A stretch of 64,000 nucleotides of DNA from an uncultured delta proteobacterium (GTDB lineage: Bacteria > Desulfobacterota > Desulfobacteria > Desulfobacterales > B30-G6), in contig CAWGLD010000007.1 in assembly GCA_963823335.1 (NCBI GenBank), positions 192,001 to 256,000 of the forward strand, read 5' to 3'. The position numbers and the translations under genes are program-made. Position 1 is the stretch's first letter, and each line of letters opens with the position of its first letter. The notes below the pieces were generated by a model. The model was given only the letters and a program-made list of their open reading frames with translations, did no database searches and had not been told where the DNA came from. This document shows, piece after piece, positions 13,849-45,362 of this stretch.

Positions 13849-13911
13849 TTTTAATCTTATATGTTTTTGTCTTAATCCCGAAGTGATATTGCTGTGGTGA
13901 TTGAATGGAGG

Positions 13912-17597: not shown

Positions 17598-18065
17598 ATG
17601 ATGAATAGTTTTATAAAAGCAATGATTTTAATTGGCATCACTGTATTCGGATCTATACTGTTTTTGCAGCAACCAGCACATGCTCACTGTCAAATTCCAT
17701 GTGGAATCTATGATGACCACGCGAGAGTTCAATCGATGCTTGAAGATACCGCTACCGTAGAAAAGTCAGTTAATTTGATTATTGAGTTGGCAGATAAGTC
17801 CGATGCACAATCCCAAAACCAATTGGTTCGTTGGGTGATGAATAAGGAAAAACATGCCCAGCAAATTATCTCTACCATCAGTGACTACTTTTTAACGCAA
17901 CGAGTCAAACCGAGCCAAAAAGACTATTCTGAACGTTTATTAAAGCACCATGCGGTAATTATTGCAGCAATGGAGGCCAAACAAAATGTTGATATGAAAT
18001 ACGTGAAGAACCTAAAGGATAGTGTTGAGGCTCTTTTATCTTACTATCCAGAGCACAAGCAATAA
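17598..18065 (+). CDS. sodN: Nickel superoxide dismutase precursor (cassette gene)
   Basis: Signal peptide ending AHA then Ni-hook HCQIPCGIYD; RWVMNKEKHA; RBS AGGAGG before ATG 17598. Confidence 0.9.
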   Translation: MMNSFIKAMILIGITVFGSILFLQQPAHAHCQIPCGIYDDHARVQSMLEDTATVEKSVNLIIELADKSDAQSQNQLVRWVMNKEKHAQQIISTISDYFLTQRVKPSQKDYSERLLKHHAVIIAAMEAKQNVDMKYVKNLKDSVEALLSYYPEHKQ

Positions 18066-18319
18066 AAAACTCATAGAACATGGCGGCTTAACTCGGACAG
18101 CATAAAGATATCAGGCACCTGAAATTTTACCGGTGTGCGAAAATAATCACAACCGCCCATTTCTTGCATTGATAGGAGCTCCTGTGGTACCTTGGCGATG
18201 ACCATATGGTATCGGTAAAATTTGCATTGGGCTTGATAACTGGACTTCTCTCCATGTATCTGTAATGCGATAATATCCCGATACGGAAGGAATGATGGGT
18301 ATGGTAGATAGGATTTATT

Positions 18320-19751: not shown

Positions 19752-20117
19752 AGCTTTTATTACTCCAACGAAAGTGCAGTTATCAGACCCCTAAAATATT
19801 ACCGGTGTGTGAAAATAATCACAGCCGGTCAAATCTTGCATGGATAGGGTCTCCCGTGGTACCTTGGGGATGACCAAACGGTATCGGTAATATTGCCGTT
19901 GATCTTGATAACTGGACTTCTCTCCATGTATCTGCAATTTAATATTTCTTTGATACATACAAGAAATTATTTCGCAAAAGATATAATTTGAAACCCTTCA
20001 TAAGAGTCCCCTATTTTTATGCTTGTAATTCATTTGCAACGAATCAATAATTAACCTTGTACGAAAGACGGATTGCCGAAGAAAATTGGTATTCTGCCAT
20101 ATGGCCGAAAAAAAATT

Positions 20118-21314: not shown

Positions 21315-21899
21315 ATGTCAAGCGACTTAAACGGAATTGTGGTAACAAGGTGTGCCACCGCCCAGCCAGTCGCTGAAACCTGACCGTCCTGATTGTTAGT
21401 GTGATTCCATGTATCTCAAACAAAACGGTAGATATTGGGTACCCTAAAATAATACTGGTGTGCGAAAATAATCACAACAGGCCAAATCTTGTATTCATAA
21501 GCTCTACCGTGGTACCGTGGCGATGACCAGATGGTATCGGCAATAATTTCATTGAGCTTGATAACTGGACTTGTCTCCATGTATCGGTACTTGGCTGATA
21601 TTTGGTTTTCAGACAAGATACCACATGCTTTTCACTTCCAAAAATGATTTGACAATATCAAATAATTGCAGCATAGTTTTTTAAACATACTTAAAGTTCA
21701 GTTGAAACTGGATTAATTTTGTCTTAAATCTACAATTCCTATCGCATCTCTATCTACTGACCTCAATCACAACATCGATTTGATCTGCAATCTGTTCTTC
21801 TTTCATTCCTGATCATTTGATTTTCATTACTTTGTGGTGTTGAAAATTCCTTTGGAATTTTCTTTATTGTCAAACAACAAACATTAAAGGAGTGAAAAA

Positions 21900-22376
21900 A
21901 TGAAAGTTTACTCAAGAGTTTTATTCTCTCGAAAATTTATTGTGGTTGTTAGTTTTCTTTTACTTTTTGGTATTTTTATTATGCCTGCCATGGCATCTGA
22001 CCGCTTTGTTAACAATGGCGATGGTACTGTTACAGACACAAAGACTGGACTGATGTGGTCAGCAGCAGACAATGGGAATCACATAAACTGGAAGGATGCC
22101 TGTTCTTATTGTCAAAGTTGCAGTGTTGGCGGCCACACAGACTGGCGAATGCCAACATTGGCAGAACTAAAAAGTCTTTATGCTCCTGTAATAACGAACG
22201 AATATGGTTACCATATTACTACATTTATAGGTACTACTGCCGAAAGTTGTTGGGCTTCAGAGACTCGTGGCGAGGAAGCTGCCCGTTTTAATTTCAGGTA
22301 TGGGCAAGAGTATTGGCTGCGACAATTTCACTCAGGCTCAGGTAGGGCCTTACCTGTGCGGAATGTTAATTATTAA
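21900..22376 (+). CDS. DUF1566 (Lcl C-terminal-like) secreted protein, copy 1
   Basis: NGDGTVTDTKTGLMW, DWRMPTLAEL. Confidence 0.88.
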   Translation: MKVYSRVLFSRKFIVVVSFLLLFGIFIMPAMASDRFVNNGDGTVTDTKTGLMWSAADNGNHINWKDACSYCQSCSVGGHTDWRMPTLAELKSLYAPVITNEYGYHITTFIGTTAESCWASETRGEEAARFNFRYGQEYWLRQFHSGSGRALPVRNVNY

Positions 22377-22925
22377 ACCGGATCCTAACATTCGGAGATA
22401 TACAAGTTGTCAGTTGCAGACCGCTCCACGGGGCTGTAACTGTTTTTGATGACACATCACAATTGAATTAGCAGTGAACTTTTAGTTTAAAGAAAAACAG
22501 ACTTTATGTCGTACAGCTCCAACAAAAACAAAGATATCAGACCCCCGAAAAATTGCCGGTGTGCGAAAATAATCACAACAGGTCAAATCTTGCATTCATG
22601 GAGCCTGCCATGCTACCGTGGACATTACCATATGATATCGGTAAAATTTGCATCGGGCTTGATAACTGGACTTCTCTCCATGTATCTAAAGTTGGGACAT
22701 TGCATGAGTACCGCCAGAACAACCTACTCAAAATGTTTGAAACACCTCATTTCTTGACCGTTCCTAACAAATCATGTATGTACTCTATATTGCACCCAGT
22801 TCACATCTGAGCTGAAGCTGATTGTCCACTATTGTGCCTGAGTTGACCTGAACTTCAACCTGTTCATACCTTCCCAAGCAATATTATTTCCACAGCATCT
22901 ATCCATTGATCTGAAAGGGGGCATT

Positions 22926-23375
22926 ATGAAATCCATCATCGTTGCCACTTTTGTAAGCATCTTTATTTTAGCTAATGGTTTCCAAGCTGTTGCGGCAGAC
23001 AAATATTCTGTATCTGGTGAAATCATTTTTTATGAAGAACAAGGGGAATTTATTTTAAAGCTTAAAACCCAAGATGAATTGGAAAATGCCGTAAAGACAA
23101 TTCCACCAGAAAGATATCTATTGATAAAGCCTACCTCAGACCAACTTAAAGCTAAAAAGGTTACTTTTTCATTTACGAATATTCCCGCTGGCAGCTATTG
23201 TATCTCCTGCCTTCATGACCTAAATAAAAATGGGGAATTGGATCGTGTTCCTGAAACTGGTTTTCCTGTTGAGCCATATGGTTATTCAGGGCCATTGGCA
23301 TTTGGAAAGCCTATGTGGGAGGATGTAAGCTTTAAAGTAGATAAGGATATTAGTGGGATCAAAATCAAGCTATAG
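22926..23375 (+). CDS. DUF2141-like secreted protein (cassette gene)
   Basis: PAGSYCISCLHDLNKNGELD...PVEPYGYS. Confidence 0.8.
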   Translation: MKSIIVATFVSIFILANGFQAVAADKYSVSGEIIFYEEQGEFILKLKTQDELENAVKTIPPERYLLIKPTSDQLKAKKVTFSFTNIPAGSYCISCLHDLNKNGELDRVPETGFPVEPYGYSGPLAFGKPMWEDVSFKVDKDISGIKIKL

Positions 23376-23539
23376 CCTGTATTGTACTATCTCCAACAAA
23401 AACAAAGATATCAAGCGCCCAAAATATTACCGGTGTGCGAAAATAATCGCAACAAACAGAATCTTGTATTCATGAGCCCTGCCGTGGTACGCTGGGCATA
23501 ACCAGATGGTATCGGTAATATTTGCATCAAACTTGATAA

Positions 23540-25216
23540 TTGGACATCTCTCCATATATCAGTGATTACTCGATAGTTGGTTATAATGGAAGAGCTATGA
23601 ATTTGCTTCAGAATAGGAAGTACATGACTTTTCGTATCCTTGCCACGTTATTAGGTCTGGTATCTTTTTATTCTTTCTCTGCCGCATCGATTATCATCTA
23701 CCCAACAGGAGCTTGGCAAGCTTCTACTCCTGAAGAACAAGGGATGGAATCTCAAGCCCTTGCTGAAATGATGGAGTACATAAAGAAAAACAGTTTCAAC
23801 ATTGATAGTATATCAGTTGTACGAAACGGTTTTATGGTTTTCGATGCATACTTTTGGCCATTTTCAAAGGGGCAAAAGCATATTATTCATTCATGTACAA
23901 AAAGCATTATGTCAGCATTGATAGGCATTGCTATCGATAAAGGATACATTCAAGATGTGAACCAATCCATTATCGATTTTTTCCCAGATAGAGCATTTGC
24001 GAATAATAGTGACCTTAAAAAGTCCATTACGCTTGAAAACCTACTAATGATGGCATCAGGCTTGAAATGCAGGGACTCTTATCTTTATCGCTGGAAGGGA
24101 TTGTTTGAAATGCGATATAGCAGGGATTGGGCTCAATATGTTCTCGACCTTCCCATGGTTGAGCCTCCAGGTAAAAAGTTTGAATATTGCAATGGAGTCT
24201 CATATCTCCTATCTGTCATTATCCAAAATTCAACAAATATGACAACTTTAGATTTTGCAAGAGAGCATCTATTTGATCCCCTTGGCATATTTGAAATTGG
24301 TTGGGCAAATAGTCCTCAGGGTGTTGATATCGGATATGGTGAGATGTGGTTAAAGCCTCATGATATGGCCAAATTTGGATGGCTATATCTAAATAAGGGA
24401 CAATGGGGCAACAAACAGATAATACCTTCAACATGGGTTGAGGTTTCTACACGTGGGCATATCGATACTACGCTTTTTGATCAATATGGGTATCAGTGGT
24501 GGATCGATTCTGCTGGATATTATATGGCTGTTGGATATAAAGGCCAGCGTATTTTCGTTGTGCCGGAAAAAAATATTGTGGCGGTCTTTACCAGTGATCT
24601 GACCGGCAGGAATAGTTTAGTTTCTAAAAATTTGCTGGACTATTACATAATTCCAGCTGCATCTTCACCTACCGTATTATCACCAAACGTGGAAGAACAA
24701 GCCAGACTGGGTGCATTAATAAATAGTGTCGCCAAGGCTCCATTGGCCGGATTTGTTTGGATTTCAGAAAATAAGGGAATAGCGAAAGATGGTGTTTTTA
24801 AGAGAACAGCATCACCGGCTTTTAAGTTTGAGTATCCATTGGGTAGTAAAAAAATAGCAATTGCCTATCCAAGTCAGATAATGAGAATGAGAACTCCAAG
24901 AGACTTTGAATTTTCTGCCTTTGTTGGTGATATCCCTGAGGGTTTAGAGTTAGAAGACTTCGGGCAAAAATTTTATGCCAAGGAGATAGAGAATGTTGGT
25001 TCAGATATCAAAGTCATTATTAATAAAGAAATCACGCTTAAGTGTGGTACGAAAGCATATCAAACGGAACTTACATGGGTATTGAATAATACTATGCTGA
25101 TAAGGACTTTTCTCGTAACAGCATACAAGGATGGGAAATATGTATTTATAGACGCTCACCCATGGAAAAATGAGAATAACGCTGAACTAATTGTTCAGAG
25201 TTTAATATTTAGATAG
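23540..25216 (+). CDS. Serine hydrolase, beta-lactamase family (cassette gene; true start probably downstream of 23560)
   Basis: SCTK (SxxK), FEYCN, DMAKFGWLYLNKG, YGYQWW. Confidence 0.9.
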   Translation: MDISPYISDYSIVGYNGRAMNLLQNRKYMTFRILATLLGLVSFYSFSAASIIIYPTGAWQASTPEEQGMESQALAEMMEYIKKNSFNIDSISVVRNGFMVFDAYFWPFSKGQKHIIHSCTKSIMSALIGIAIDKGYIQDVNQSIIDFFPDRAFANNSDLKKSITLENLLMMASGLKCRDSYLYRWKGLFEMRYSRDWAQYVLDLPMVEPPGKKFEYCNGVSYLLSVIIQNSTNMTTLDFAREHLFDPLGIFEIGWANSPQGVDIGYGEMWLKPHDMAKFGWLYLNKGQWGNKQIIPSTWVEVSTRGHIDTTLFDQYGYQWWIDSAGYYMAVGYKGQRIFVVPEKNIVAVFTSDLTGRNSLVSKNLLDYYIIPAASSPTVLSPNVEEQARLGALINSVAKAPLAGFVWISENKGIAKDGVFKRTASPAFKFEYPLGSKKIAIAYPSQIMRMRTPRDFEFSAFVGDIPEGLELEDFGQKFYAKEIENVGSDIKVIINKEITLKCGTKAYQTELTWVLNNTMLIRTFLVTAYKDGKYVFIDAHPWKNENNAELIVQSLIFR

Positions 25217-25466
25217 ACTGCCGATAGCTGGTACCTTTCCTATAGGTAGATGTTGTGGAGGCGAGCGAGCCCGTAGGGTGTAGCTCGCGGAGTCTCCACA
25301 ACTCTATCGATAGGGGTTTTCAAGCCTTAAATTCCCCCGTAATTATCCAATTCCAAAATAATAAAGGTGAAACTCCCCTGTTTAATGAGCCATCAGGTTT
25401 TGGCCTGTGGCATAATTGATGCGTAGTCTGCAATGAAGCAGCTACAAAACAAAAGGAGTTTCACCT

Positions 25467-26663
25467 ATGAAAAAACGAAACATTTATCAGAATCAAAGTC
25501 AAGATTTACTTAGTCTTTTTGAGGCGGCTGGCAGCAGTGAAAAAGTGATGTGCGTGCCGTTAGATTATGCAAAGAAAGATCATTTGGCGATGTTTTGCAA
25601 TGGGTACGGTGATATTTTGCGAAAACCGTTTTCAGTGAAGAACACGCCAGAAGGCATAGCATACATCGATGATCAGGTAACGCGTTCCTGCCGGCGGCGT
25701 GGCATAAAAAAGGAGCATGTCTTTTTTGGTGGTGAAGATGCCAATTCATTTGCGAAAAATTTTGTCAGCACATTACGAAGCAAAGGCTTTCTTGTTGCCA
25801 ATGTGAATGCGCATGACGCAAAAAAACAGCGTGGGAATCTGCAAGCCAGTACTGATCGAATAGATTTAATGGGCATTGCCACCATGCTGTTGAATTGTCG
25901 TGCCAACTGCGGTCCTGCTCAATCCGGCATCTATCGTAATCTTCGCACCCTTGTTCGCCATCGGCGCAAGCTGGTTCAAATGTTAACTGAAGTAAAAAAT
26001 CGAGTGCATGGAATTGTCGATGAGCTTTTCCCCGGATTCTTAAATGAAAAGAATAGCGGTATCGTTCCGTTTACACAAAGTTCACTATACTTGATGGAAG
26101 ATCGTTTTAGTCCGAAACAGATCCGTCGTCGCAGACGTCAAAAGCTGATCGAAATTCTTAAGCGATTTGGTACTTCAAAGGCTGAGAAAACGGCCGCTAA
26201 ACTTCAACAGTATGCGGCAAATGTACTGCATGCCCCGGTTGAATATGTTGATACAATGCAGCTATCCCTGGCCCAGCATGTCAAACACATAAGGTGTTTA
26301 AAAGAAAGTGTTGCGCAGATGGATAAGGAGATAGCGTTGAATCTGTCACAAACCCAAGGCGCTTTTCTGACAAGTGTACGCGGCATTGGTCTTGTTTTGG
26401 CAGCCGGCGTAACCGCTGAGATCGGAGATTTAAATGAACAAAAGTCTCTCAATAATTTGGCATCCTATTCAGGCATCATCCCGCGTGTTAAACAAACCGG
26501 TGGTACCGATGGCAAAACGTATACAGGACCGGTAGCCACCCTGTCCGTCCGAAAACTAATTATGGCTCCAAGGTACTCTGATCCTGGGATCGCTCAGAGA
26601 TCTCGTCATACCAGTTTGTCAAGATCGGACGTTATGGGCAGGGGTTACCACCTGTTATGCTGA
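25467..26663 (+). mobile_element. IS110-family transposase, apparently C-terminally truncated
   Basis: N-terminal LDYAKK/DEDD-type domain, TDRIDL, SVRGIG...AEIGD, SYSGIIPRVKQTG, then similarity is lost. Confidence 0.8.
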
Positions 26664-27202
26664 ACTTTGAATAACTGAAACTGTGATGGCTAAGACTGGT
26701 TCATTTAAAAGATATCAAAACCGGCCCGGACCGGTACAGGGGAAGTGTTGCCTAAAATTTGCGGAGAATATTGGCTTGACTTTATTCTGGTACTCCAACT
26801 AATCCACGGTGAAAGGGGCCTCTGAAAAGCTTTGATACCATACTATCCAGCGAATTCCTGACCTAAAAGGTAAGTCTGTCAATTCAAGTATAAGCCAGGA
26901 CATTGTCAAAAGACGGACATTACATTACAAATTCACCACACAAGATTGACTTGACCTGACACCCTTAATTGATGGTATCTGCAATAAGGCCCGAATGATG
27001 ATTGTCTCCATGTATCGGTAATTGGATATATTTGGTTTCATGCTTGACTGAAAATATTTCCTTCTGTATATCAATTAAAACACTTAAATTTCATCTCTTC
27101 TGAAGTTGATGTGCCTTTCCTAAATCTACACTTCATTCTAAGTTGCCCTGTCAAAGCTTTAAACTGCTCTTTTCTCACTTCGATCATTAATAGAAACCAA
27201 AT

Positions 27203-28120
27203 ATGAAAGTGAAAGGAGACCGAAAAATGAAAAGACTATTCATACTGATTCTTTCTTTAATTCTAATGGGATTTGCTGCAGGACAAAAACCGCAGGCTGC
27301 TGAAATTGTAAAACTGACTGAAAAAACAACAAATATTGAGTCTTTTGAAATATGCTATAATGAAGGTGGGAAAGGAGAAACTGTCCTTTTGTTACATGGT
27401 TTTGGTGGAATGAAGGAAATGTGGACTGAATTTGCACAATTTCTTATTCCATCATACCGTGTCATTATTTTAGATCTACCAGGTCATGGGAAAAGCACAA
27501 AAAGCATTGAAGCATCATATACCATTGAAAAGCAGGCAGAGAGAATTGACCAATTTGCTAATTCTTTGGGATTGTCCAAGTTTCATATAGCAGGGAATTC
27601 AATGGGAGGAACCATTTCTGGGGAGTATGCTGTTAATTATCCTGATCGATTATTAAGTTTAGGGTTGTTCGATACAGGCGGGGTTCTTTCTAACAAAATG
27701 AGTGATTTTATATCAATTCTCATGTCCGAAGGAAAAAACATCCTGATTGCAAAAAATCGAGAAGAATATGATAAAGTTTTAGAATTCGTATTTTTTAAAA
27801 TTCCTTCTTGGCCACAAGAACGCATGGATGGAGCTTTTGAAAGAAGTATTGCGGACCCCGAATTAAAGGAAAAAATATTTGAGGACATCACGAATGGATA
27901 CCAAATACCTCTACAATTTAACCTAAATAAAATCAATGCACCAACATTAATTCTTTGGGGTGATAAAGACCGAATCTTAGACGTATCTTGTGCTAAAATT
28001 CTTGAAAAGGGAATTTCAAATTCAAAAACAGTTATTATGAAAGATATGGGTCATTGCCCCCAAATGGAACGTCCAGAAGAAACAGCTAATCATTATATTG
28101 AATATCTACGGAGCATATAA
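27203..28120 (+). CDS. Secreted alpha/beta hydrolase (lipase/esterase) (cassette gene)
   Basis: LLHGFGG, DLPGHG, GNSMGG, WGDKD, GHCPQME. Confidence 0.92.
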   Translation: MKVKGDRKMKRLFILILSLILMGFAAGQKPQAAEIVKLTEKTTNIESFEICYNEGGKGETVLLLHGFGGMKEMWTEFAQFLIPSYRVIILDLPGHGKSTKSIEASYTIEKQAERIDQFANSLGLSKFHIAGNSMGGTISGEYAVNYPDRLLSLGLFDTGGVLSNKMSDFISILMSEGKNILIAKNREEYDKVLEFVFFKIPSWPQERMDGAFERSIADPELKEKIFEDITNGYQIPLQFNLNKINAPTLILWGDKDRILDVSCAKILEKGISNSKTVIMKDMGHCPQMERPEETANHYIEYLRSI

Positions 28121-28396
28121 TCATAAGAGGTAAAAGAATTCTCTTGCAGGGTCAGAAATGGCCCTGCCTTTTTTACAGATTGCCAATATCTCCAACGATT
28201 CGGTAGATATCAGACACTTAAAATATTACCGGTGTGCGAATATATTCACAACAGGTCAAATCTTGCATTCATAGGTGTCTCCATGGTACCTTGGGGATGA
28301 CTATATGGTATCTGACAATTTATCAGATTATCGGATAGTTGGATTTGTCTCCATCTATCTGTAATGGCTGTTATTGGATCATAAGGAAGTTCGATT

Positions 28397-28837
28397 ATGC
28401 CCATTGAGATACAAGATTGTGATGGTGGTATAGGCAATATCATTATAAGTCGAGGGGTGGTTACGGATCAAGAACTTGTCGATACCTTGAATGAACATCT
28501 AACACATAACAAAGAAAAATTAAAAAGATACAAATACATTCTTTTTGATCACACAGCATTAACAAAGTTGGATATCACTAAAGAAACCGTAGAATTTATT
28601 GCAGGACTATGGGAAGACATCTCGAGAGCTAATCCAGATCCTATAACTGCAATGATAGCTAATGTTTCAATTGGAGCTAATATCGATCTTATCAATAGAA
28701 TTTCGAGAATGCATGAATTATTTATTCATCGGTCGTGTTGGGAAACCATGGTATTTAGAACTAAAATAGAAGCGGTGAGATGGATCAAGGAAAAGGTTAG
28801 AGAAAAATTTGGAATTAATAATCTGACATTTGATTAA
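28397..28837 (+). CDS. Hypothetical protein (cassette gene)
   Basis: 146-aa ORF between R11 and a short site at 28870. Confidence 0.7.
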   Translation: MPIEIQDCDGGIGNIIISRGVVTDQELVDTLNEHLTHNKEKLKRYKYILFDHTALTKLDITKETVEFIAGLWEDISRANPDPITAMIANVSIGANIDLINRISRMHELFIHRSCWETMVFRTKIEAVRWIKEKVREKFGINNLTFD

Positions 28838-28949
28838 ACTCAGACATGGTTCACGTGCTCGAAAAAAAAGATATCTGCAATTTGGTCTAACTGTGAATAT
28901 TCTCCATCTATCTGCAATTGAAATACAAGGTTCACTAAAAGGAGGAATC

Positions 28950-29426
28950 ATGATAGGCGGGTTGGCCTTCCAAGATGAGTCTTATATTAAAAATAACCAT
29001 TGCTGGGTGTGTGGTAATGATAATCCTTATGGGCTTTATATTAAAAGCCAATGGGATGGTGACGAATCTATTTGCGAATGGGAACCAAAGGATTATCATT
29101 GTGCAGGTTGGCCTATCGTATTAAACGGAGGTGTCATTTCTGGTATTATGGATTGCCACTGTATATGCACAGCCATTGCGGAATATTACAAAGATAAAAC
29201 CTTTGAAGAAAAGGAATCACCAAAATATTGGTTTGCCACAGTCTCACTAAAAGTTGATTTTCTAAAACCAGCTGCTGTAGATAAACCTGTTCAGCTACGG
29301 GCAAAGATTAAGGAAATGCATAAAAAGAAAGCTGTTGTTTCATGCTCTTTATACTCGGATGGTGTAGAATGTGCGCAATGTGAAATGATTGGTGTACGAG
29401 TTCCTGCTAACGTAGGGCAGAAGTGA
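28950..29426 (+). CDS. PaaI-family thioesterase (cassette gene)
   Basis: CWVCGNDNPYGL, LNGGVISGIMD, LKVDFLKP; RBS AGGAGG. Confidence 0.85.
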   Translation: MIGGLAFQDESYIKNNHCWVCGNDNPYGLYIKSQWDGDESICEWEPKDYHCAGWPIVLNGGVISGIMDCHCICTAIAEYYKDKTFEEKESPKYWFATVSLKVDFLKPAAVDKPVQLRAKIKEMHKKKAVVSCSLYSDGVECAQCEMIGVRVPANVGQK

Positions 29427-29604
29427 CGTTATCTGTAATTTGACCGGACTATTGATTATCTCCCTATCACAGTTGCTCGGGCTTACATGAAAACCGTGTT
29501 GAATTATTACAACCACAATCTTTATATCCATGGAACAATCTCCCACACTGTGAAATACAAATAATCGACAATATGAAAGCCATCATAAGAACGGAGCTTT
29601 AAAA

Positions 29605-29769
29605 ATGTCCAAGGGTGTTAATGAGAGAAAGCTGACTTGTTCAGATATTGGATACCGTGGAAAACCATTGGACAAGTTATCTAAAGATGAGTTTATTGAT
29701 CTTTGTCTTAAATTAGCCCAATCAATTCATGATTGCTCGACTGACGAAGCACCATGTAAAAATGTTTAA
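29605..29769 (+). CDS. Small hypothetical protein (54 aa)
   Basis: MSKGVNERKLTCSDIGYRGKPLDKLSKDEFIDLC...; GGAG RBS; below the ORF-track cutoff. Confidence 0.45.
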   Translation: MSKGVNERKLTCSDIGYRGKPLDKLSKDEFIDLCLKLAQSIHDCSTDEAPCKNV

Positions 29770-29869
29770 GCATGTGAACTATGGCTGGATATCCTTGTAT
29801 TGTCGCCTACAATGTGGTATTAACAAAACACTCATGCTAAAATAATTAATGGTCAAAAAATAATACCAC

Positions 29870-30280
29870 GTGAAAGATCAAATTAGAAACAAGAAAGGTT
29901 TTACCCTTGTTGAAGTCATTGCCGTTTTAGTAATTCTGGGTATCCTTGCAGCCGTGGCCATTCCAAAGTTTTTTGATATGCAGGAGAACGCCCGCATTAA
30001 AGGCTTAGCCAGTTGTATTGCGGTATTGAGCGGAGAGGCCAAATTAGCCTTTGCTAATAATATAATAAATGCCGGCCCCGATGGAAGGTATGATGGTTAT
30101 ATAGGCATCGGTGATCCTGATTTCATTGTGACAGGTCAATCTGTAAATACGCCCGCTTCTGGTACTATCAAGTACAAGAACCATCCTGATGTTTATAATC
30201 TTATTTGGACGCCCGGTCCTTCTACCGGACCCGAAAATAAGAAAAGACCTGGATATTTTACCTTGGGCAGTAAGATTTAG
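29870..30280 (+). CDS. Type IV pilin-like protein with N-terminal methylation motif (cassette gene)
   Basis: KKG-FTLVEVIAVLVILGILAAVAIPKF. Confidence 0.9.
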   Translation: MKDQIRNKKGFTLVEVIAVLVILGILAAVAIPKFFDMQENARIKGLASCIAVLSGEAKLAFANNIINAGPDGRYDGYIGIGDPDFIVTGQSVNTPASGTIKYKNHPDVYNLIWTPGPSTGPENKKRPGYFTLGSKI

Positions 30281-30741
30281 CAATTGACAAAGACACATTT
30301 CACGGAACCTAAGTAGGGTCAATTTTAGCCCTATTCTTTTTGGTGACATCTCCAAACGGTAGATATCAGACCCCTGAAAATTTACCGGTGTGCGAAAATA
30401 ATCACAATAGACCAAATCCTGCATTGATAGGGTCTCCCATGGTGCGCTGGGCATGACCAGATGGTATCGGCAATAATTTGGTTGAGTTTGATAACTGGAC
30501 TTATCTCCATCAATCACAGATTTCAAATTCAATATTTATTAGCGTAACCTTCGGTTTTGACGTATTTTCCTCAACCCCAAGATGTTGCGGTTGTAGATTC
30601 TTATAATCTGAAAGCGACGGATCATGCTATCAGATATTTCATTGCAGGTGATTGTCTCCACATCTCACACTTGCATCACAGGATAGCTAAGAAAAGATGA
30701 CATGATTGGAGATTCATATTTTCAGAATTTAGGAGGGAAAA

Positions 30742-32204
30742 ATGAAAATATTTATTTTAAGTTTTCGTAAAATAATATTTTGTATTCTTGCTTTTTTCCT
30801 TTTCGCATTCGTGACTGAAAATGCAGTTGGCGAACAATCCAAAGAGCGCGAATACTGGCCAACCTCAGGTTGGAAGACTTCAATCCCAGAGAAGCAGGGG
30901 ATGGATTCCGCCAAACTATTGATAGCAGACGAGTTTATTCAGAACAGACTTCCCGATGCATTTAGCTTGCTGGTTGTCAAGAATGGCTATTTAGTCTTTG
31001 AGAAATATTACTCGTTGGGAAGTCGGGAAAAATATGCTGACGTCCATTCCGTTACTAAAAGTTTTACATCAGCCTTAATTGGTATCGCACTGGACAAAGG
31101 TTATCTTAATAGTGTTGATCAAAAACTTGTCGATTTTTTTCCTGAATATATCACTGATGAATCAGATCCGATGAAACAGGAGATCAGTCTTAGACACCTA
31201 TTAACAATGAGTGCCGGGTTTAAGTGGAACGATTGGGGTCCTAGCATGCGGAACTGGTTATATTGTTCTTCGAATTGGGTAAAATCTGCGATTCAACTCC
31301 CGCAAGAAAATACTCCGGGTGACATATTTAATTACAATTCATCAACGTCACATCTTCTGTCAGCAATCCTGTCAAAATCTTCTGAAACAAACACGTTGGA
31401 TTTCGCAAAGCAATACCTTTTCGAACCATTAGGGATTCAATCAGCCTATTGGCATGAAGACCAGCAAGGATACCATATTGGCGGTTTTGGTTTGGGTTTT
31501 TCAGCACGGGATTTGGCAAAATTCGGCTTCCTGTACTTAAATAATGGGTATTGGAATGGTCAATCTATTGTCTCTGAATTTTGGGTGAATCAATCGACCA
31601 GTCAACAAATACAAGCCTGTCAAGCCATCCCATTTATGGTAAATTTGGGTATGGGTATCAATGGTGGGTGAAAAAAGTCGATGGTTGCAAAAGCTATAGG
31701 GCACTGGGGAAGGCGAGGACAATTCATTGTGGTCGTTCCGGAACTGGATCTTGTCATTGCAGTAACATCCAACCCCGTGCAGCCTCACCCGCCGACTTCC
31801 ATTCATTACAATCCTCTTTTTGATCTGGTTGCAGCCGCTGTTAAAAGGAATAGGCCGCCGAAAAAACCACTGGTTGCTGTTGAATTGCCCCCTGATGTGA
31901 AGACCTTCATATCTGACTATAATCAAGCCAGATATGATAAATCTAGAAAATGTCAGAGCTGATTTCGGATCGTTTTCTCCATGAGGGAGTTACCAAGCAA
32001 ATGGCTGTGAGTTTTTTAACAGGAGCCAAATCTTATACATCTGAGGCTAAAATCATTATTACGAGGTTTGAACTCGTTGAGGAGAAGGCTGAAGTTGATG
32101 TCTGGCTTAAGGACAAATATTTTGAATCTCTTTTTATGAAAGGTAGCAGTCTGATTAAAGAAAATGGAAATTGGAAATGGTATGGAAATCAAGTTTCAAG
32201 ATAA
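30742..32204 (+). pseudogene. Frameshifted beta-lactamase-family serine hydrolase
   Basis: SVTK, FNYN, DLAKFG; continuation (YGYQWW, GQFIVVVPELDLV) split across ORFs at 31581, 31681 and 31950. Confidence 0.8.
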
Positions 32205-32669
32205 CCAATCATCGTATATAGGAAAATGCAGACGGCTATTTGCAGATACTTGCTATATGCTAAACACCAGATGTAGTATGGAGTGATTTCACCAAAGTGT
32301 GAAGATTACTGGTATAAATGTTGACCTTGTAGGGTGTTACTATCTCCAACAAAACATTAGATATCAGGCACTTGAAAAATTGCCGATGTGTGAAAATAAT
32401 CACAACAGACGAAATCTTGCATTGATAGGCCCTACCGTGGTACCGTGGGTATAATCGAATAGTTCAGTAATTTGAGCAGACCGTTGATCCATGTATCACC
32501 ACCTTGTGTGAGCTTATGACATTGGCAAGCTTAACACTATCTCATTCCTCTGCTTAACCTTTCACACAAGTTATTGACAGTCCATCGAGTTGGAATCTTT
32601 ACAATATCAAATTGTGGCATTATTCTTCCTATAGTTTCAGCGAAAACATTGAATGAGAGGAGAACCGAT

Positions 32670-32978
32670 ATGGCAACAATATTATTTGTACGCATCAAAT
32701 CCGATCTCGACCCTAAGGAGCTAGAACGTCGATTAATTGAACGCCGACCTCGATTTCATGAGGTGCCGGGACTGGTGCAGAAATTCTATGGACGAGACGA
32801 ATCGACCGGTGATGTGTGCGGCATATATTTTTTTGAGGATCAAAATGCGCTCTCAGCTTTTCGCGAAACCGAGTTAGCAAAAACGATTCCGACTGCATAC
32901 GAAGCAAAAGAAATTCGACGGGAAGTCTACGAAGTACTCTATCCCTTATATCCTGATCGCGGACCGATTGCAGAATAG
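32670..32978 (+). CDS. YdhR-like putative monooxygenase (cassette gene)
   Basis: VPGLVQKFY...CGIYFFED; RBS GAGGAG. Confidence 0.75.
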   Translation: MATILFVRIKSDLDPKELERRLIERRPRFHEVPGLVQKFYGRDESTGDVCGIYFFEDQNALSAFRETELAKTIPTAYEAKEIRREVYEVLYPLYPDRGPIAE

Positions 32979-33329
32979 ATTCTTGTTTGCACCCATATAG
33001 CACATGTTTTTCAGTCCTTTAAAATCTGGTGAAACCTCCAACAAAACGTTAAATATCAACCCCTTAAAATATTACCGGTGTGCGGAAAAAAACAACAAAA
33101 TTTGCATTAATAATGGTCCCCATGCTACCGTGATGATGACCAAATGGTATCGTTAATAATTTGGTTGAGTTTGATAACTGGACATCTCTCCATACATCAC
33201 CGGTGGAGGCATTTCAGCATTACTTAGAAACTCTATTGCATTTTGAGCTCTATTGACGTTATAAAAAATAGGGTTATTTTACTTACAGTATTCTTTTTTT
33301 GGAAATAACTTAAACAAAAGGAGGATAAC

Positions 33330-33533
33330 ATGGACTTTGATCATGAGTACGCCAGCTACCTGGATGAAAAAGCTTTGTCTGAAATACAGTTATTGGAGAA
33401 AGAAACTGGCGCAATTATTTTAGCCTATCCAGAACGTCCTTTACATGCTGAACTGCCTAAAACACAATTGGACAAAATTCGATCGTTGGAAAAGAAACTT
33501 TGTGTTAGATTGGTTGCTTTCGAATCGCACTGA
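33330..33533 (+). CDS. Small hypothetical protein (cassette gene)
   Basis: Strong RBS AGGAGG; internal repeat (IQLLEKETG / IRSLEKKLC). Confidence 0.7.
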   Translation: MDFDHEYASYLDEKALSEIQLLEKETGAIILAYPERPLHAELPKTQLDKIRSLEKKLCVRLVAFESH

Positions 33534-33925
33534 AAATTACAGACTCCTCGAACATATGTTAGATCCATGAAGTTTAATGGTTCTTAGCATATCACAACCA
33601 TGGGTATTTTTAGCCCGCCTGCATTTTCAAGTTATCATGGGGAAAGTCGGCCAAGCCGATTTTCCCCTTTTTGCATTTTCGTTAGAAAATTGATATCTGT
33701 AATGGTGATTGTGGCCGGAAAGATTCCTGAATTTCATGGTATCGCAGGATTTTTGAAGGACCTGAAACCGGCTATGTTCTCCATGTATCTTTATTGCTAA
33801 AATAATTAGTGTTTGTTACTATGACACTCAATTGTTCATGGTCATTGCAAGTCGTTACCAATTAGCCTTAATCATAGGTAACGCATTATTAACTTCTATA
33901 TATTATCTGCGAAGGAGGATGTTCT

Positions 33926-34606
33926 ATGCGAAATGGATTCCCGAAACACCTGAAGATGGTTACGGTATTATTTTGCGTTGGTTTGCTTTTGGCTTTTGTC
34001 CTTAGTTGCAGTGGTGGTAGCGGTGGTGGTGGTGGCGGTGGTGATGATGACGATCAGTCTCTTACAGTCACCGGCAAATCCGGGAATCTTGTTAACTTGG
34101 ATGGTACTTGGGAATCAGAATGTGTAGCCGATATAGCGGATGGTGAGTCAGAAATGTGGGTTATGACTATTTCAGGTTCTACATTTTCACGGAATGATAG
34201 CAATTGGTTTGACTCAACGGACTGTTCTGGAGCATTCGACGTTACAGTGACTATAAGCGGGACAGTCGTTTTGGGGGATGAGCTTACAGTTTCAATGAAC
34301 GGCTCAAATGTTACCGCCACAGAAAATGATATCACACTAAGCTCATATGAAGCCACAATTAATAATCCAGATTTAGTTGCAGGTATAAATGCAGACGAGG
34401 AATGTGGCTTTGATGACTGGGTGGTAGACACTCCCAAGGATCTTCTCGGAACATCTTGTGCGCCTGATTCAGACATAAAGGACGTAGTATATGTCGATGA
34501 CACAGTTGATCCTAACGTTTGGAATAGCGGAGATGGTGAAGGACCAAATGATGTAAATGGCTATCCAGCTGAGATTGATCCAGATACTGCAATGGAGCGA
34601 ATGTAG
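33926..34606 (+). CDS. Acidic lipoprotein (cassette gene)
   Basis: Lipobox VLSC then Gly linker; hairpin terminator at 34639-34678. Confidence 0.75.
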   Translation: MRNGFPKHLKMVTVLFCVGLLLAFVLSCSGGSGGGGGGGDDDDQSLTVTGKSGNLVNLDGTWESECVADIADGESEMWVMTISGSTFSRNDSNWFDSTDCSGAFDVTVTISGTVVLGDELTVSMNGSNVTATENDITLSSYEATINNPDLVAGINADEECGFDDWVVDTPKDLLGTSCAPDSDIKDVVYVDDTVDPNVWNSGDGEGPNDVNGYPAEIDPDTAMERM

Positions 34607-35308
34607 ATTACTGTGTGGCAGGATGACAATGTGTAATCAAATAGTAGCAGCAGGCTTGAACTCCTGCTGCTACTATTTCAGCAGAGAATCATCAGAATAA
34701 AGATTCTATTTGGTTTGATATATGAGTTAGGGATGTGTGTTTCCATCCATTAAACAGGCGCAGCTGAAGGAGTGATATATCATGGCTCTATTCACTTTTA
34801 TGCTCCTTGTAAAATTGCAGATTTCTCCAACAAAACGGTAGATATCAGACCCCTAAAATATTACCGGTGTGCGATTATAATCACAATCGGCCGTTTCTTA
34901 CATTGATGGGTGTTTCCGGTGCACGATTGACATAATTAGATGGTATCGGTAAAATTATTTGATATTCCAAAATGTCAGGTTATCTCCATGTATCGGTACT
35001 TGGCTGATATTTGGTTTTCAGACAAGATACCACATGCTTTTCACTTCCAAAAATGATTTGACAATATCAAATAATTGCAGCATAGTTTTTTAAACATACT
35101 TAAAGTTCAGTTGAAACTGGATTAATTTTGTCTTAAATCTACAATTCCTATCGCATCTCTATCTACTGACCTCAATCACAACATCGAGTTGATCTGCAAT
35201 CTGTTCTTCTTTCATTCCTGATCATTTGATTTTCATTACTTTGTGGTGTTGAAAATTCCTTTGGAATTTTCTTTATTGTCAAACAACAAACATTAAAGGA
35301 GTGAAAAA

Positions 35309-35785
35309 ATGAAAGTTTACTCAAGAGTTTTATTCTCTCGAAAATTTATTGTGGTTGTTAGTTTCCTTTTACTTTTTGGTATTTTTATTATGCCTGCCAT
35401 GGCATCTGACCGCTTTGTTAACAATGGCGATGGTACTGTTACAGACACAAAGACTGGACTGATGTGGTCAGCAGCAGACAATGGGAATCACATAAACTGG
35501 AAGGATGCCTGTTCTTATTGTCAAAGTTGCAGTGTTGGCGGCCACACAGACTGGCGAATGCCAACATTGGCAGAACTAAAAAGTCTTTATGCTCCTGTAA
35601 TAACGAACGAATATGGTTACCATATTACTACATTTATAGGTACTACTGCCGAAAGTTGTTGGGCTTCAGAGACTCGTGGCGAGGAAGCTGCCCGTTTTAA
35701 TTTCAGGTATGGGCAAGAGTATTGGCTGCGACAATTTCACTCAGGCTCAGGTAGGGCCTTACCTGTGCGGAATGTTAATTATTAA
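35309..35785 (+). CDS. DUF1566 secreted protein, copy 2
   Basis: Protein identical to 21900-22376. Confidence 0.88.
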   Translation: MKVYSRVLFSRKFIVVVSFLLLFGIFIMPAMASDRFVNNGDGTVTDTKTGLMWSAADNGNHINWKDACSYCQSCSVGGHTDWRMPTLAELKSLYAPVITNEYGYHITTFIGTTAESCWASETRGEEAARFNFRYGQEYWLRQFHSGSGRALPVRNVNY

Positions 35786-36417
35786 ACCGGATCCTAACAT
35801 TCGGAGATATACAAGTTGTCAGTTGCAGACCGCTCCACGGGGCTGTAACTGTTTTTGATGACACATCACAATTGAATTAGCAGTGAACTTTTAATTTAAA
35901 GAAAAACAGACTTTATGTCGTACAGCTCCAACAAAAACAAAGATATCAGACCCCCGAAAAATTGCCGGTGTGCGAAAATAATCACAACAGGTCAAATCTT
36001 GCATTCATGGAGCCTGCCATGCTACCGTGGACATTACCATATGGTATCGGTAAAATTTGCATCGGGCTTGATAACTGGACTTCTCTCCATGTATCACCAG
36101 TTGACCTATTATTTGACATGCGATTTAGATCTCGTTATATATATTCATCCATATACCGCTACCGCAGAGTCTTACCTGTCATTAACCTGATGACAGGGCT
36201 GATGTGATCCTGATCTTCTGAATTTTCGATCCTCTTGTCATTTTATCCATTATTATATCAACATGTGATCGATATGGAAATTTATCTGATCATAGGATGC
36301 CTGAAGTTTCTGATGTGATGCCTCTGGAGACGATATTATTTCGCTTTGGAGGCCAATTGGGTTGGCAATCATTCGGTCAAATTAGTGAATTTAGGATAAG
36401 AACAGAAGGGGGAAATA

Positions 36418-37002: not shown

Positions 37003-37398
37003 TATCCAACAAAACGTTAGATATCAGGCACCCTAAAATTTACCGGTGTGCGAAAATTATCACAACAGACGGAATCTTGCATTGTTAAGCCCTACCGTGA
37101 TACCTTCGCGATGACCAGATGGTATCGGTAATTTTATCTGAAAAATTGATAACTGGACTTCTCTCCATGTATCTGTATTGTGACGAGCTTTGGTTTTACG
37201 ATAATGCGCATCACTGTTTTGATTGTTCTGGAATACCATCTGAAATGGAAGGATAATTTGGGACTATTGATTGCAATGAGAAGGCAGCAAAATCTGCATG
37301 GGGTGATGTGACATATTTCTAAATTAAGTAGCAGTAAACGCCTTGGAAATTCACCATCAAACGCACAGAATATTCTGAGTCACAGCAGGTATCTTTAT

Positions 37399-37974: not shown

Positions 37975-38152
37975 CTCTTAAAAGTTCTTCATAATATTCC
38001 AATTTATGATATCTGGAATTTGGTTCAACTGGTAATATTCTCCATCTTTCTGTATTTCGATGATACTTGGATTATTGACCATATCTCCAAACAGCATTGT
38101 TGGAACAGCAAATAGAGATTAAGAATAAGTAATTTTGTCGAGGGGAAAAACA

Positions 38153-38957
38153 ATGGGTATATTTCAAGATAAGGTAATCATCGTAACTGGAGCGTCCGAA
38201 GGGATAGGACGTTCTTTATGTTTAGCACTTTCTTCTCAGAAACCTAAACTTGTAATGGCCGCGAGAAATAAAGACCGACTTATGCAATTACAGGAGGAGG
38301 TAGAATCTAAAGGGTCAACATCAGTTGTTGTGCCAACTGACGTGAGCGAAGAGAAGGATTGTAAAGATCTTATTGAAAAAACCATTTCAGAATTTGGTCG
38401 TTTAGATGTTCTTGTCAACAATGCTGGCAGAACCATGTGGACAACGCTCGAAGATATGGCAGAACCATCTATTATTGAACAACTTATGCGCATCAATTAT
38501 TTTAGGCGCTGCCTATTGTACATATTATGCACTATCCCACCTGAAAAAAAGTAAAGGACTAATTGTGGGAATTTCAAGTCTTGCCGGTTTGAACGGTGTG
38601 CCAACCCGAACAGCTTATTCAGCGACCAAACATGCCATGTTTGGTTTTTTTGATTCGCTCAGAATTGAATTGATGGGAACCGGCGTTACAGTGACGATGA
38701 TAGCTCCGGATTTCGTTCTCAGTGAAATTCATCGACGTGCATTTGGCAAAGACGGAAAACCGCTTGGATCAAGCCCGTTGCAGGAAGACAAAGTTATGAC
38801 TGCAAATGAATGTGCATCCAGAATTATAAAGGCTATGGAAGACCGGGATCGCCTGGCAATTCTATCATTTAGAGGAAAACTTGGTCGGTGGATGAAGCTT
38901 ATCGCGCCGGGATTTATTGACCAGATAGCTTCAAAAGCAATTCGCGATGCCAAATAG
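38153..38957 (+). pseudogene. Frameshifted SDR oxidoreductase
   Basis: TGASEGIG and NNAG in one frame; YSATK in another; shift at the T-run near 38500. Confidence 0.85.
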
Positions 38958-39157
38958 TTGCATGTAGGCAATCTGGCACAAAACCTGGGCACTACTCCTA
39001 TAAAACGGTAGATATCAGACCCCTAAAAATTTACCGGTGTGCGAAAATAATCACAATAGACCAAATCCTGCATTGATAGGGTCTCCCATGTTACGCTGGG
39101 CATGACCAGATGGTATCGGCAATATTTTCAAATTATCGGATAGTTGGACTTGTCTCC

Positions 39158-40937
39158 GAGACTGTCGAAAAAGATCCTCCTATCTAACCTTAAAAGATGT
39201 ATAATTATCTCTATAAACCGTTGACATATCCTACCGTTATGCTAGTCATTGTTTAGGTAAATGAGCAAATGACAATGGCCAAACATACAGGAATTAGGCA
39301 TGGCAAAGTATAAGCACTACGACTACTCTCAAAGTTTATTGATACCTGTTTCCCTCCAAAAACAATTGATGCCAGGGACGTTAGAGTTCGCCATCCACAC
39401 CCTTGTGGAACGGCGGATGGATATGTCCGTATTTGATACGAGGTATCAAAACGACGATACCGGCCGCAGTGCCTATAATCCTAAGATACTACTGAAAGTT
39501 GTCTTGCTTGCTTATTCACGTGGGTTGATATCATCACGCCAAATCGAACGAGCATGTTGTGAGAATGTGACTTTTATGGCGATGTCATGCAACCAACGTC
39601 CTGATCACAGCACCATTGCTTCATTCGTTTCTTCTATGGAAGATCAAATTCAACCTCTGTTCAGCGATATTCTTTTAGTATGCGAGCAAGAGAATCTTTT
39701 AGGCGGAACCTTCTTTGCCATTGATGGCTGCAAGCTATCGTCCAATGCATCCCAAGAATGTAGTGGGAAAATAGATGATTTGAAGAAAAAGAAAGAAAAG
39801 CTTGAACATAAGATTAAGTCATTGGTTCGAGATCATCTTGAAAAAGACCAATCAGACGATAGGGCCAAGACACAGATGGCTGCAAATCATGACAAACAAA
39901 CTGAGAGACTTAAGCGGCAGGCTGAAAAGATTGAGCAATGGCTTTCGGAAAACGACAAAAAAATTGGCGCCTATGGAAAAGAACTTCACAGCAATGTAAC
40001 TGACAACGATTCTGTTAAAATGCATACCTCACACGGAACCGTTCAGGGTTATAACTGTCAGGCGTTAGTCGATTCCAAGCACCAGGTAATTGTTCATGGC
40101 CAGGCAATAGGGAAAGGGCTTGATCATGAAAATCTGCCGCCGGTGATTGATGGTGCCAAAGAAAATATTCAAAGCATCGGCAAGCCAGAGGACTATTTCG
40201 AAGATAAGGTATTAACAGCTGATGCAAGCTACCACAGCATAACGAATATCAATAAATGCAATGACGAAAAGGTAGATGCTTATATTCCAGACAACAAATT
40301 CCGTAATCGAGATGAGAGGTTCTCAAGTCGGATAAACAATCAGTCAAATTCTAAAAAGTTTACATTTGCAGATTTTAAATATGACTGCAAACAGGATCAC
40401 TATGTTTGCCCAAATGGTAAACGGCTTAAGAGAAATGGGAAACCTGGTTTACACAGGGGCAAACTTTTAAAAAGATATATTTCTCGGGAGATAGATTGTA
40501 GGTCCTGTCGACTCAGGGCTAAGTGTCTTAGGTATGAAGATGCAAAACAGCGACATTTTACGTACTATGTGGATGCATCTGGCAAGAATATATCCCATGA
40601 AATGATCAAGAAGATTGAATCTGAAAAAGGTCGTAAAATCTATCCGCGAAGAATTGCCATCGTTGAACCAGTATTTGGAAACATCCGCATCCAAAAACGA
40701 ATGGACAGGCTTAACTTAAGGGGAAAGATAAAGGTAAATATTCAGTGGTTGCTGTACTGCATGGTACACAATATAGAGAAAGTGGCTAATTACGGGCATG
40801 CATAGGCTGTACAGACCAAATAAGTAGGCTGAATCTGTAAAATATGATAGCATCTTGAAGTAAAAAAGATGGATCTATTGAAATCGAGAATGTCGAGCGA
40901 TGAGCCGGTTCGCCGAAATGCCTTTTTCGACAGTCTC
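39158..40937 (+). mobile_element. IS1182-family insertion sequence
   Basis: 16-bp perfect terminal IR GAGACTGTCGAAAAAG / CTTTTTCGACAGTCTC; apparent TCC duplication. Confidence 0.92.
39300..40805 (+). CDS. IS1182-family transposase
   Basis: GRSAYNPKILLK, PDHSTIA, AIDGCK, GYNCQ, ADASY, VEPVFGNI. Confidence 0.92.
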   Translation: MAKYKHYDYSQSLLIPVSLQKQLMPGTLEFAIHTLVERRMDMSVFDTRYQNDDTGRSAYNPKILLKVVLLAYSRGLISSRQIERACCENVTFMAMSCNQRPDHSTIASFVSSMEDQIQPLFSDILLVCEQENLLGGTFFAIDGCKLSSNASQECSGKIDDLKKKKEKLEHKIKSLVRDHLEKDQSDDRAKTQMAANHDKQTERLKRQAEKIEQWLSENDKKIGAYGKELHSNVTDNDSVKMHTSHGTVQGYNCQALVDSKHQVIVHGQAIGKGLDHENLPPVIDGAKENIQSIGKPEDYFEDKVLTADASYHSITNINKCNDEKVDAYIPDNKFRNRDERFSSRINNQSNSKKFTFADFKYDCKQDHYVCPNGKRLKRNGKPGLHRGKLLKRYISREIDCRSCRLRAKCLRYEDAKQRHFTYYVDASGKNISHEMIKKIESEKGRKIYPRRIAIVEPVFGNIRIQKRMDRLNLRGKIKVNIQWLLYCMVHNIEKVANYGHA

Positions 40938-41005
40938 TCCATTAATCACCAGTTTCAGATTCAAGATTAATTAGCGTCTTCAGTTTCGCCAAATTTCCAC
41001 AACCC

Positions 41006-45284: not shown

Positions 45285-45362
45285 TCGGATTGACGAAATT
45301 CTCACCCGGTTTCATACAGGCCCGTAGCTCTTCAAGATGCAGACCAAGAAAATTGACGATAA

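Follow-up and report, generated by a model that had tools for sequence, protein, structure and literature searches.

The sequence analyzed here, herein referred to as the window, is a stretch of 64,000 nucleotides (nt) from an uncultured delta proteobacterium of the order Desulfobacterales. It corresponds to C7:192001-256000 of the source genome (G000), a metagenome-assembled draft of 4.37 Mb in 11 contigs with 4.6% contamination. Between positions 7782 and 43832, single-gene modules of the window are separated by 19 direct repeats, each about 175 nt long, all on the plus strand and spaced by 0.5-6 kb. This array is one of about 14 in the genome that probably form a lineage-specific integron-like system, in which modules would be joined at a TCTCCA core and exchanged by a dedicated recombinase. 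The system looks like a form of gene capture that works as integrons do and is built from different parts. The analysis shows the anatomy of the repeat, its genome-wide and family-wide spread, the clustering of breakpoints, a breakdown of synteny wherever a repeat is present, and the association of a recombinase gene with the repeat ends.

The repeat consists of three parts, namely L (positions 1-64), M (65-107), and R (108-172), the last of which ends in a 12-mer, TCTCCATGTATC (161-172). The TCTCCA core is common to both repeat edges. In each gene module, the core is followed by TGTATC..., by a leader that contains a promoter-like site, and by a single gene, after which the module closes with ...GATAT and a further core. 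The distance from the stop codon to the repeat is 10-300 nt, and the next start codon is located 150-700 nt further on. With few exceptions, the genes between the repeats are also on the plus strand. The sequence TCTCCATNNATC was found in 21 copies in the window, all on the plus strand and all within 7942-43832; shuffled sequences contained 0.18 copies on average, and none of 100 reached 21. The genes between the repeats are mutually unrelated. They encode uroporphyrinogen decarboxylase (URO-D), a major facilitator superfamily transporter, a DnaJ-domain protein, Ni-superoxide dismutase (Ni-SOD), a YceI/rhodanese protein, an acyltransferase, a DUF2141 protein, two beta-lactamase-fold hydrolases, an alpha/beta hydrolase, a thioesterase, a pilin-like protein, and a CDP-alcohol transferase. 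Mobile elements were also found in the array, including an IS110 element, a DDE insertion sequence (IS), and a group II intron. The promoter-like sites, seen in several of the leaders, are only suggestive, because the promoter scan as a whole revealed no enrichment (63 sites versus 57.4 +/- 7.9 in shuffled sequences).

In total, 83 repeats were found by profile search in the array regions of the source genome. They form 19 clusters, 14 of which have at least two copies; 12 of these 14 are uniformly oriented and two contain one opposite-strand copy. For seven of the 14 arrays, a transfer RNA (tRNA) gene is found at a distance of no more than 5 kb, versus 2.1 arrays on average for random placement (P about 0.0014). 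The repeat was found in 13 of the 14 other genomes of the same uncultured Desulfobacterales family and in the single genome searched from a second family. It was not found in 25 other families of the order, with one genome searched per family. Public records with an exact 23-nt core are labelled as metagenome-assembled genomes of an uncultured delta-proteobacterium, Desulfobacterales, and Thermodesulfobacteriota, together with one contig filed as Zixibacteria.

Breakpoints and inheritance of modules

One unit of the array is duplicated. Copy A (21574-22686, plus strand) and copy B (34983-36095, plus strand; offset 13409) form an ungapped block of 1113 nt with four mismatches, as aligned by MAFFT with 100-nt flanks, and the same 1113-nt segment was returned by stringent BLAST at 99.64% identity. 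The first base of the block is the T of TCTCCATGTATC and the last is the C of the next TCTCCATGTATC. Upstream of the first 12-mer, copy A reads ...ACTGGACTTG and copy B ...GTCAGGTTA, with only repeat-like resemblance between the left flanks; downstream of the second, TAAAG in copy A is replaced by ACCAG in copy B, and the right flanks are unrelated. Thus, the near-identical pair and its limits are exactly those proposed in an earlier sequence-only reading of this stretch. Each copy comprises the first 12-mer, a leader, a gene, and the whole downstream repeat with its closing 12-mer (22675-22686 in copy A). A promoter-like TTGACA-17-CATAGT is present in both leaders (21649-21677 and 35058-35086), followed by the gene (21900-22376 and 35309-35785) and, in copy B, the repeat at 35925-36095, all on the plus strand. 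The mismatches are located at window positions 21779, 21956, 22485, and 22635; the one at 21956 is a third-codon T/C difference, and the encoded protein of 158 amino acids (aa) is identical in both copies. Both open reading frames (ORFs) match the Pfam family Lcl_C/DUF1566. By whole-genome self-BLAST (4.37 Mb), this pair is the sole duplicated cassette in the source genome.

Breakpoints were mapped in 1.0 Mb of arrays, comprising 12 stretches of the source genome and 40 from genomes G001, G004, G005, and G007. Shared segments were required to have at least 90% identity over at least 250 bp, with scoring that ends an alignment where identity drops. The resulting 126 segments have 252 ends, of which eight are at locus edges, 74 are inside a repeat or no more than 12 nt away from one, and 170 are elsewhere. 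Among the 51 repeat-associated ends of segments running downstream, 37 are at repeat positions 160-179, eight at 140-159, and three at 40-42. The remaining 23 ends arrive from the upstream gene, 16 of them at positions -5 to 15 and three at 165-170. At base level, downstream-running segments start at (T)CTCCAT or as far as 4 nt beyond ATC, and upstream-derived segments end in or just past CTCC(A)AC. In several independent cases, the switch follows TCTCCAT or TCTCCATG, and the end of a second intragenomic duplication, found in G007, also follows TCTCCATG. The putative exchange point thus maps to the 3' border of the TCTCCA core, and a crossover at about positions 7-9 of the 12-mer is supported. 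The earlier proposal that strands are exchanged within the 12-mer, and not at the ACTGGAC/GTTGGAC position, is supported by the limits of the duplicate and by the 37 of 51 downstream-running ends, which fall in or next to the 12-mer. The distribution of the ends within the repeat is not random, with only five in its best-conserved stretch (35-66). Because upstream-derived segments stop at the left edge, each repeat would have two exchange points, both with TCTCCA, and the gene module and the repeat would be separable.

Single cassettes of the window recur in other genomes and in other contexts at 85-98% identity. The module of the DnaJ-domain gene (16278-17242, plus strand) is 98% identical to a segment of G007:C20. 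The shared stretch extends from the 12-mer as far as ATTTCT|CC, which is the left edge of the next repeat, and in G007 a full repeat is present on neither side. Since its core-bounded ends are kept there without full repeats, this module appears to be a discrete unit by itself. The Ni-SOD module (17391-18153, plus strand) is 97.5% identical to a segment of G004:C12; its left break separates positions 8 and 9 of the 12-mer and follows an R-only site, and its right break is at repeat position ~64. The pilin-like module with its downstream repeat (29780-30510, plus strand) is 85% identical to a segment of G007:C15, and the similarity ends directly after TCTCCAT. In this alignment, the module and the repeat look co-inherited, an apparent exception to separate movement.

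No whole repeat was found within a shared segment, either among 126 segments at >=90% identity or among 219 at >=85%. Likewise, the gaps within 19 pairs of collinear neighbours contain no repeat; collinear blocks do exist outside the arrays. Upstream repeat pairs of shared modules (n = 25) are 0.67-0.85 identical, with a background of 0.74 (standard deviation 0.06; 300 random pairs). Of the six downstream repeat pairs, the two intragenomic ones are 0.994 identical and the four between-genome ones are 0.57-0.79 identical, which is the background level. Judged from these alignments, the gene module mostly seems to move between genomes without the repeat. The leader-gene-repeat unit, earlier proposed to be the mobile one, therefore holds for both intragenomic duplications (G000 and G007) and mostly not between genomes, where all four scored downstream repeat pairs are at background.

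Recombinase of the master copies and proposed mechanism

Some matches of the repeat profile are repeats split into positions 2-64 and 108-172. At C1:163780-164845 of the source genome, these two pieces enclose a tyrosine recombinase gene, which is on the opposite strand and has its own terminator. The same L-recombinase-R layout was found at the start of the array on contig C18 of G001, and a truncated copy of the recombinase in contig C9 of the source genome. The two master copies diverge after TCTCCAT. Because the ends are shared and the same short core bounds both forms, the ~175-nt repeat can be regarded as the gene-less form of an autonomous L-recombinase-R element.

The recombinase is a protein of 278 aa that scores 64.6 bits with PF00589 (cut-off 27.1). 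Its catalytic residues R138, K165, H224, R227, H251, and Y260 are the same in all nine homologues that were aligned, and by score and residues it belongs to the tyrosine recombinase superfamily. Among the Xer models, the nearest is the archaeal XerA (102.1 bits, cut-off 220), followed by XerD (42 of 329.6) and XerC (38.5 of 335.15); the best solved relative is 4A8E, a Pyrococcus XerA-type protein (E 1.7e-15). The host's probable XerC and XerD are encoded by separate genes on contigs C3 and C5. The recombinase was found in 8 of the 15 genomes of the family, including the source genome (E<=1e-20), with 1-3 copies per genome, some of them truncated. In public protein data, 4195 relatives were found at E<=1e-10, mostly on contigs of 1-2 kb. 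At 22 of 80 metagenome loci, the gene has the R module just upstream, and at 14 it has the L module just downstream; many of the contigs are too short to show R or L. The similarity among these loci is limited by ATCTCCAAC on the left and by TCTC(C)AAT.TATC on the right.

A run of nine adenines (A9) is located about 20 codons past the ATG in all six recombinase homologues examined, including ones that are 55-60% identical: L039:5903-6739 (C1:163902-164738 of G000), L048, L049, L050, L051, and L055. The run breaks the reading frame, so that frame 0 stops shortly and the +1 frame goes on as KKNT.... Natural in-frame proteins of 278 aa were also found (P0024 and P0044). Among the 80 metagenome loci, 30 have the A9 run and a match of 835 nt, and 17 have a match of 834 nt without a long A run. 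This pattern looks like programmed slippage or phase variation that might keep the recombinase at a low level.

Unrelated tyrosine recombinase genes or fragments were also found at or inside two further arrays of the source genome (C1:1516091-1516507 and C4:151836-152081), one of them between tRNA-Glu and its array.

We infer that the recombinase of the master copies performs the exchange; a circular intermediate, the motifs bound by the enzyme, and the direction in which the reactions run are likewise inferred. Two kinds of modules, the gene module and the ~175-nt element, would be joined at the common TCTCCA core, and the simple tyrosine recombinase, supplied from rare autonomous copies, would exchange strands at the 3' border of TCTCCA(T). 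It would most likely bind GATAYC-like motifs in L, in R, and at the module ends, with L and R as arm regions; putative motifs of this type are seen in the alignment at repeat positions 19-24, 119-124, and 146-151 and at the module ends. Exchange between two right-hand cores would move the gene together with the repeat, as in the 1113-nt duplication, in which the unit probably left as a circle and was integrated again at a distance of 13.4 kb. A right-hand core recombining with a left-hand core would move the gene module alone, which is the common pattern between genomes.

To our knowledge, integrons, defined by IntI and folded attC sites, are essentially the only well-understood bacterial device that collects single genes into arrays. 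We consider the chances even that the system described here is a second, independently evolved platform of bacterial gene capture. On this account, an A9-checked mobile XerA-like recombinase and a ~175-nt arm element would stitch self-expressing single-gene modules at a 6-nt core into many tRNA-linked arrays, and the modules would be traded singly among marine-sediment Desulfobacterales; the result would be an integron in function, without IntI, attC hairpin, or common promoter. If this is true, cassette capture has evolved more than once, and the outcome of integrons is also reached with another recombinase, with a site that is not palindromic and has two exchange points, and with cassettes that bring their own promoters. 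The system would also account for a large, unannotated part of the variable genome in abundant sediment sulfate reducers and would mean that the system is invisible to integron-finding software. The putative site-specific recombinase is small and has a defined core, which makes it directly testable.

Alternative explanations

Several findings weigh against a dedicated exchange system. Seven of the 15 genomes of the family have no recombinase match at E<=1e-20, and most of these have repeats. Of the recombinase copies in the source genome, one is frame-broken by the A9 run and one is truncated. Around divergent homologues (55-60% identity; two in G007 C16 and one in G010 C51), neither arrays nor L and R modules were found. 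The segment ends are not independent: by our reading, those on the left-hand side represent about 26 independent events, of which about 18 fall within positions 153-181. Positions 40-66, where the recombinase gene and other inserts sit, form a minor hot spot of their own that is outside the model. The inverted arms at the core are only 4-5 nt long (GATA...TATC), unlike a classic 11-6-11 Xer site. Finally, among the 170 ends located away from repeats, 146 are real breaks, only seven of which have CTCCA near both partners. Other processes, such as IS elements, leader swaps, and ordinary rearrangement, thus also cut the array regions.

In an explanation that we regard as unlikely and still worth weighing, the repeats are non-autonomous copies, resembling miniature inverted-repeat transposable elements (MITEs), of the recombinase-encoding element that accumulate in tRNA-linked variable islands. 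Shuffling and duplication would then result from homologous recombination, gene conversion, unequal crossing-over, or unrelated horizontal transfer, and not from site-specific exchange at the 12-mer. The ends common to the repeat and the autonomous copy, and the direct repeat of TCTCCA on both sides, are as expected of an inserted element; repeats that are 74% alike on average in random pairs, with near-identical stretches of 24 nt, could serve homologous exchange; and the 170 ends away from repeats fit as well. Yet homologous exchange should prefer the longest identical stretch (positions 35-62), whereas only 5 of the 74 repeat-associated ends are at 40-66 and 53 are at the two edges. Synteny is never kept across a repeat, and the DnaJ module in G007 is core-bounded without a full repeat on either side. 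No filled/empty-site polymorphism of the repeat was found among 17 indels between collinear segments (1.0 Mb, five genomes), a result that counts against insertion of MITE-like copies at syntenic sites and also against the exchange system.

It is very improbable that the repeat is a functional RNA or a cis-regulatory unit (a 3' untranslated region or terminator, a small RNA, or a leader element) and that the arrays are duplicated regulated genes. The repeat is strongly conserved across genera (75-85% identity) and always located on the gene strand, and by alignment reading the variable zone of R is able to fold into hairpins in single copies, with G-T wobble pairs on the plus strand. Against this, the DNA folds of the repeat at 22510-22695 are no better than those of shuffled sequences on both strands (z -0.43 and -0.83), nor is the RNA fold of a single repeat (z -0.67). 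The RNAalifold consensus of 75 distinct copies from many genomes has only six pairs (-1.45 kcal/mol). No Rfam family matches the repeats, the matches in the window being a tRNA and two group II intron pieces only. Moreover, an RNA or cis-regulatory role leaves the recombinase in the master copies and the breakpoint pattern unexplained.

Even less credible is an assembly artefact, in which one cassette was placed twice. The source genome is a contaminated metagenome-assembled draft, and repeats are difficult to assemble, but the four differences between the copies and the unique flanks on both sides, within one contig of 409 kb, argue for two real copies. The duplication in G007 is analogous, and the conclusions at the level of the arrays are independent of the 1113-nt pair. 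Public runs are stored as short contigs (listed pieces <=878 nt); one run matched 59% of the sampled words and the others <=30%, and the joints seen in these short contigs are jumps between repeat copies.

The least probable explanation is an ordinary chromosomal integron or a cluster of attC sites lacking integron-integrases, with the repeats as long attC sites for an IntI encoded elsewhere: same-orientation cassettes with a conserved repeat after each gene, the GTTGGAC carried by some copies, and group II introns in the array would fit, but the best match to the IntI model in the genome is far below the cut-off, the folds show no palindromic hairpin, the identity of the duplicate begins 3' of the GTTGGAC/ACTGGAC position, the genome has 14 arrays, and the modules have promoter-like sites and leaders of 150-700 nt. 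The GTTGGAC sequence fits the GTTRRRY box, and some group II introns home to integron attC sites. The label attC-like given to this position in the sequence-only reading stands as an analogy only, with no hairpin and no IntI found.

Features of the window and comparison with known systems

The repeats are located, all on the plus strand, at 7783-7953, 9507-9677, 10174-10338, 16119-16289, 17240-17410, 18103-18260, 19763-19932, 21414-21585, 22516-22686, 23390-23560, 28189-28359, 30352-30515, 32343-32449 (L and M only), 33035-33198, 34824-34994, 35925-36095, 37005-37173, 38995-39157, and 43662-43832. The eighteenth is interrupted at its TCTCC core by an IS (39158-40935, plus strand; DDE transposase at 39300-40805), a 97% copy of which was found in contig C4; the displaced 12-mer, TCTCCATTAATC, is at 40936-40947. 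Additionally, two plus-strand sites (26971-27016 and 33736-33789) consist of the right module and the 12-mer without L and M, and a divergent class of 50 nt was found at 10564-10613, 28870-28919, 29428-29477, and 38008-38057. An IS110-family transposase gene (25467-26663) is located between a cassette gene and the R-only site at 26971-27016, and this element may have replaced L and M of a repeat. A group II intron with a reverse transcriptase/maturase of 440 aa (41110-42885) and a separate D1-D4 fragment (12653-12764) are both on the minus strand, antisense to the cassettes. A short-chain dehydrogenase (38135-38957) is present as two overlapping ORFs (38135-38554 and 38406-38957) and is probably a frameshifted cassette gene.

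The leaders are modular, some being 75% identical (22740-22872 and 43885-44017; leaders after 7953, 21585, and 43832). Several open with ...TGATATTTGGTTTTC... directly 3' of the 12-mer, and this motif also follows the R end in metagenome loci L119 and L133. A leader family of about 270 nt starting with TTGCGACACGAAG was found ahead of different genes in G000, G001, G004, and G007. Other short multi-copy elements, unrelated to the cassette repeat, are located at 9215-9357 and 62573-62741, at 10974-11149, and at 13905-14102 and 53503-53700. Their copies on contigs C1, C4, C5, C6, C7, C8, and C10 are 94-99% identical, and they are probably separate MITE-like families.

The G+C content of the window is 43.7%, and that of its contig is 49.4%. 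A tRNA-Arg(CCG) gene (6846-6921, plus strand) is located 862 nt upstream of the first repeat. The array is limited on the right by genes for a periplasmic binding protein and an adenylate cyclase (44103-47741, plus strand), which are 80-95% conserved in G007, G001, G002, and G012; in these relatives, neither the tRNA nor repeats are present upstream of them. A phage-type integrase of 375 aa (48497-49624, minus strand) adjoins a 64-nt copy of the 3' part of tRNA-Arg(CCG) (49857-49920; 75% identity to 6861-6924). This arrangement suggests an old tRNA-targeted integration that would bracket about 43 kb, but conserved core genes (44172-47741) are located inside this bracket and blur the limits of the putative island.

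Simple tyrosine recombinases are described in the classification paper PMC8138268, the part of which consulted here does not describe this element. A full-text literature search for such a system returned integron papers only.

The system shares with integrons co-oriented one-gene cassettes, each ending in a conserved repeat that serves as the site, and a fixed exchange point near the 3' end of this repeat. Cassettes are shuffled singly among related genomes, arrays persist in genomes in which the recombinase was not found, and the enzyme is of the tyrosine recombinase superfamily and is coded opposite to the cassettes. Joint inheritance of gene and site was seen in only two of the six downstream pairs, both intragenomic, and apparently in the pilin module. 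A canonical integron was rejected, since neither an IntI above the cut-off nor an attC-like hairpin was found: with TIGR02249 (cut-off 265), the best protein of the genome, from a Xer-type-looking gene, scores 88.5 bits, the recombinase 34.6, and the integrase at 48497-49624 62.5. Unlike integrons, the system is without IntI, and its repeat is ~175 nt long, conserved in sequence, and hairpin-free. A further exchange point is located at the left repeat edge, so that the repeat and the gene are separable, and the recombinase is inside a repeat copy, not beside attI. The modules have their own promoter-like sites and long leaders, and each genome has ~14 arrays, often near tRNA genes.

With the Xer proteins, above all archaeal XerA, the best family match, the recombinase shares its small "simple" form of core-binding and catalytic domains only. 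A Xer chromosome-dimer resolvase was rejected, as the scores are under the XerA, XerD, and XerC cut-offs, the gene is inside a repeat element, and there are 1-3 copies. The recombinase is further unlike Xer in being multi-copy, located on a mobile element, and frame-broken by the A9 run, and no 11-6-11 dif-like site is evident. Xer recombination at dif is also exploited by hitch-hikers, namely the pdif modules of Acinetobacter plasmids and integrative mobile elements exploiting Xer (IMEX); the pdif modules are likewise bounded by short recombination sites.

The likeness to MITEs consists in gene-less copies of ~175 nt that keep both ends of the enzyme-encoding copy and have short direct repeats as flanks. 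Repeat positions 2-64 and 108-172 flank the enzyme gene in both G000 C1 and G001 C18, and the source genome has 83 repeats versus 1-2 recombinase genes. Unlike in MITEs, the two ends do not form inverted repeats, the enzyme belongs to the tyrosine recombinases and not to the DDE transposases, and the copies, strictly co-oriented and arranged in arrays, mark the limits of exchangeable gene modules. Tycheposons and other tRNA-linked islands also have variable cargo by tRNA genes, tyrosine recombinases, and cargo-only units, but their repeated boundary is a part of the tRNA, whereas here it is a ~175-nt element with a TCTCCA core, unrelated to tRNA, that delimits single-gene units.

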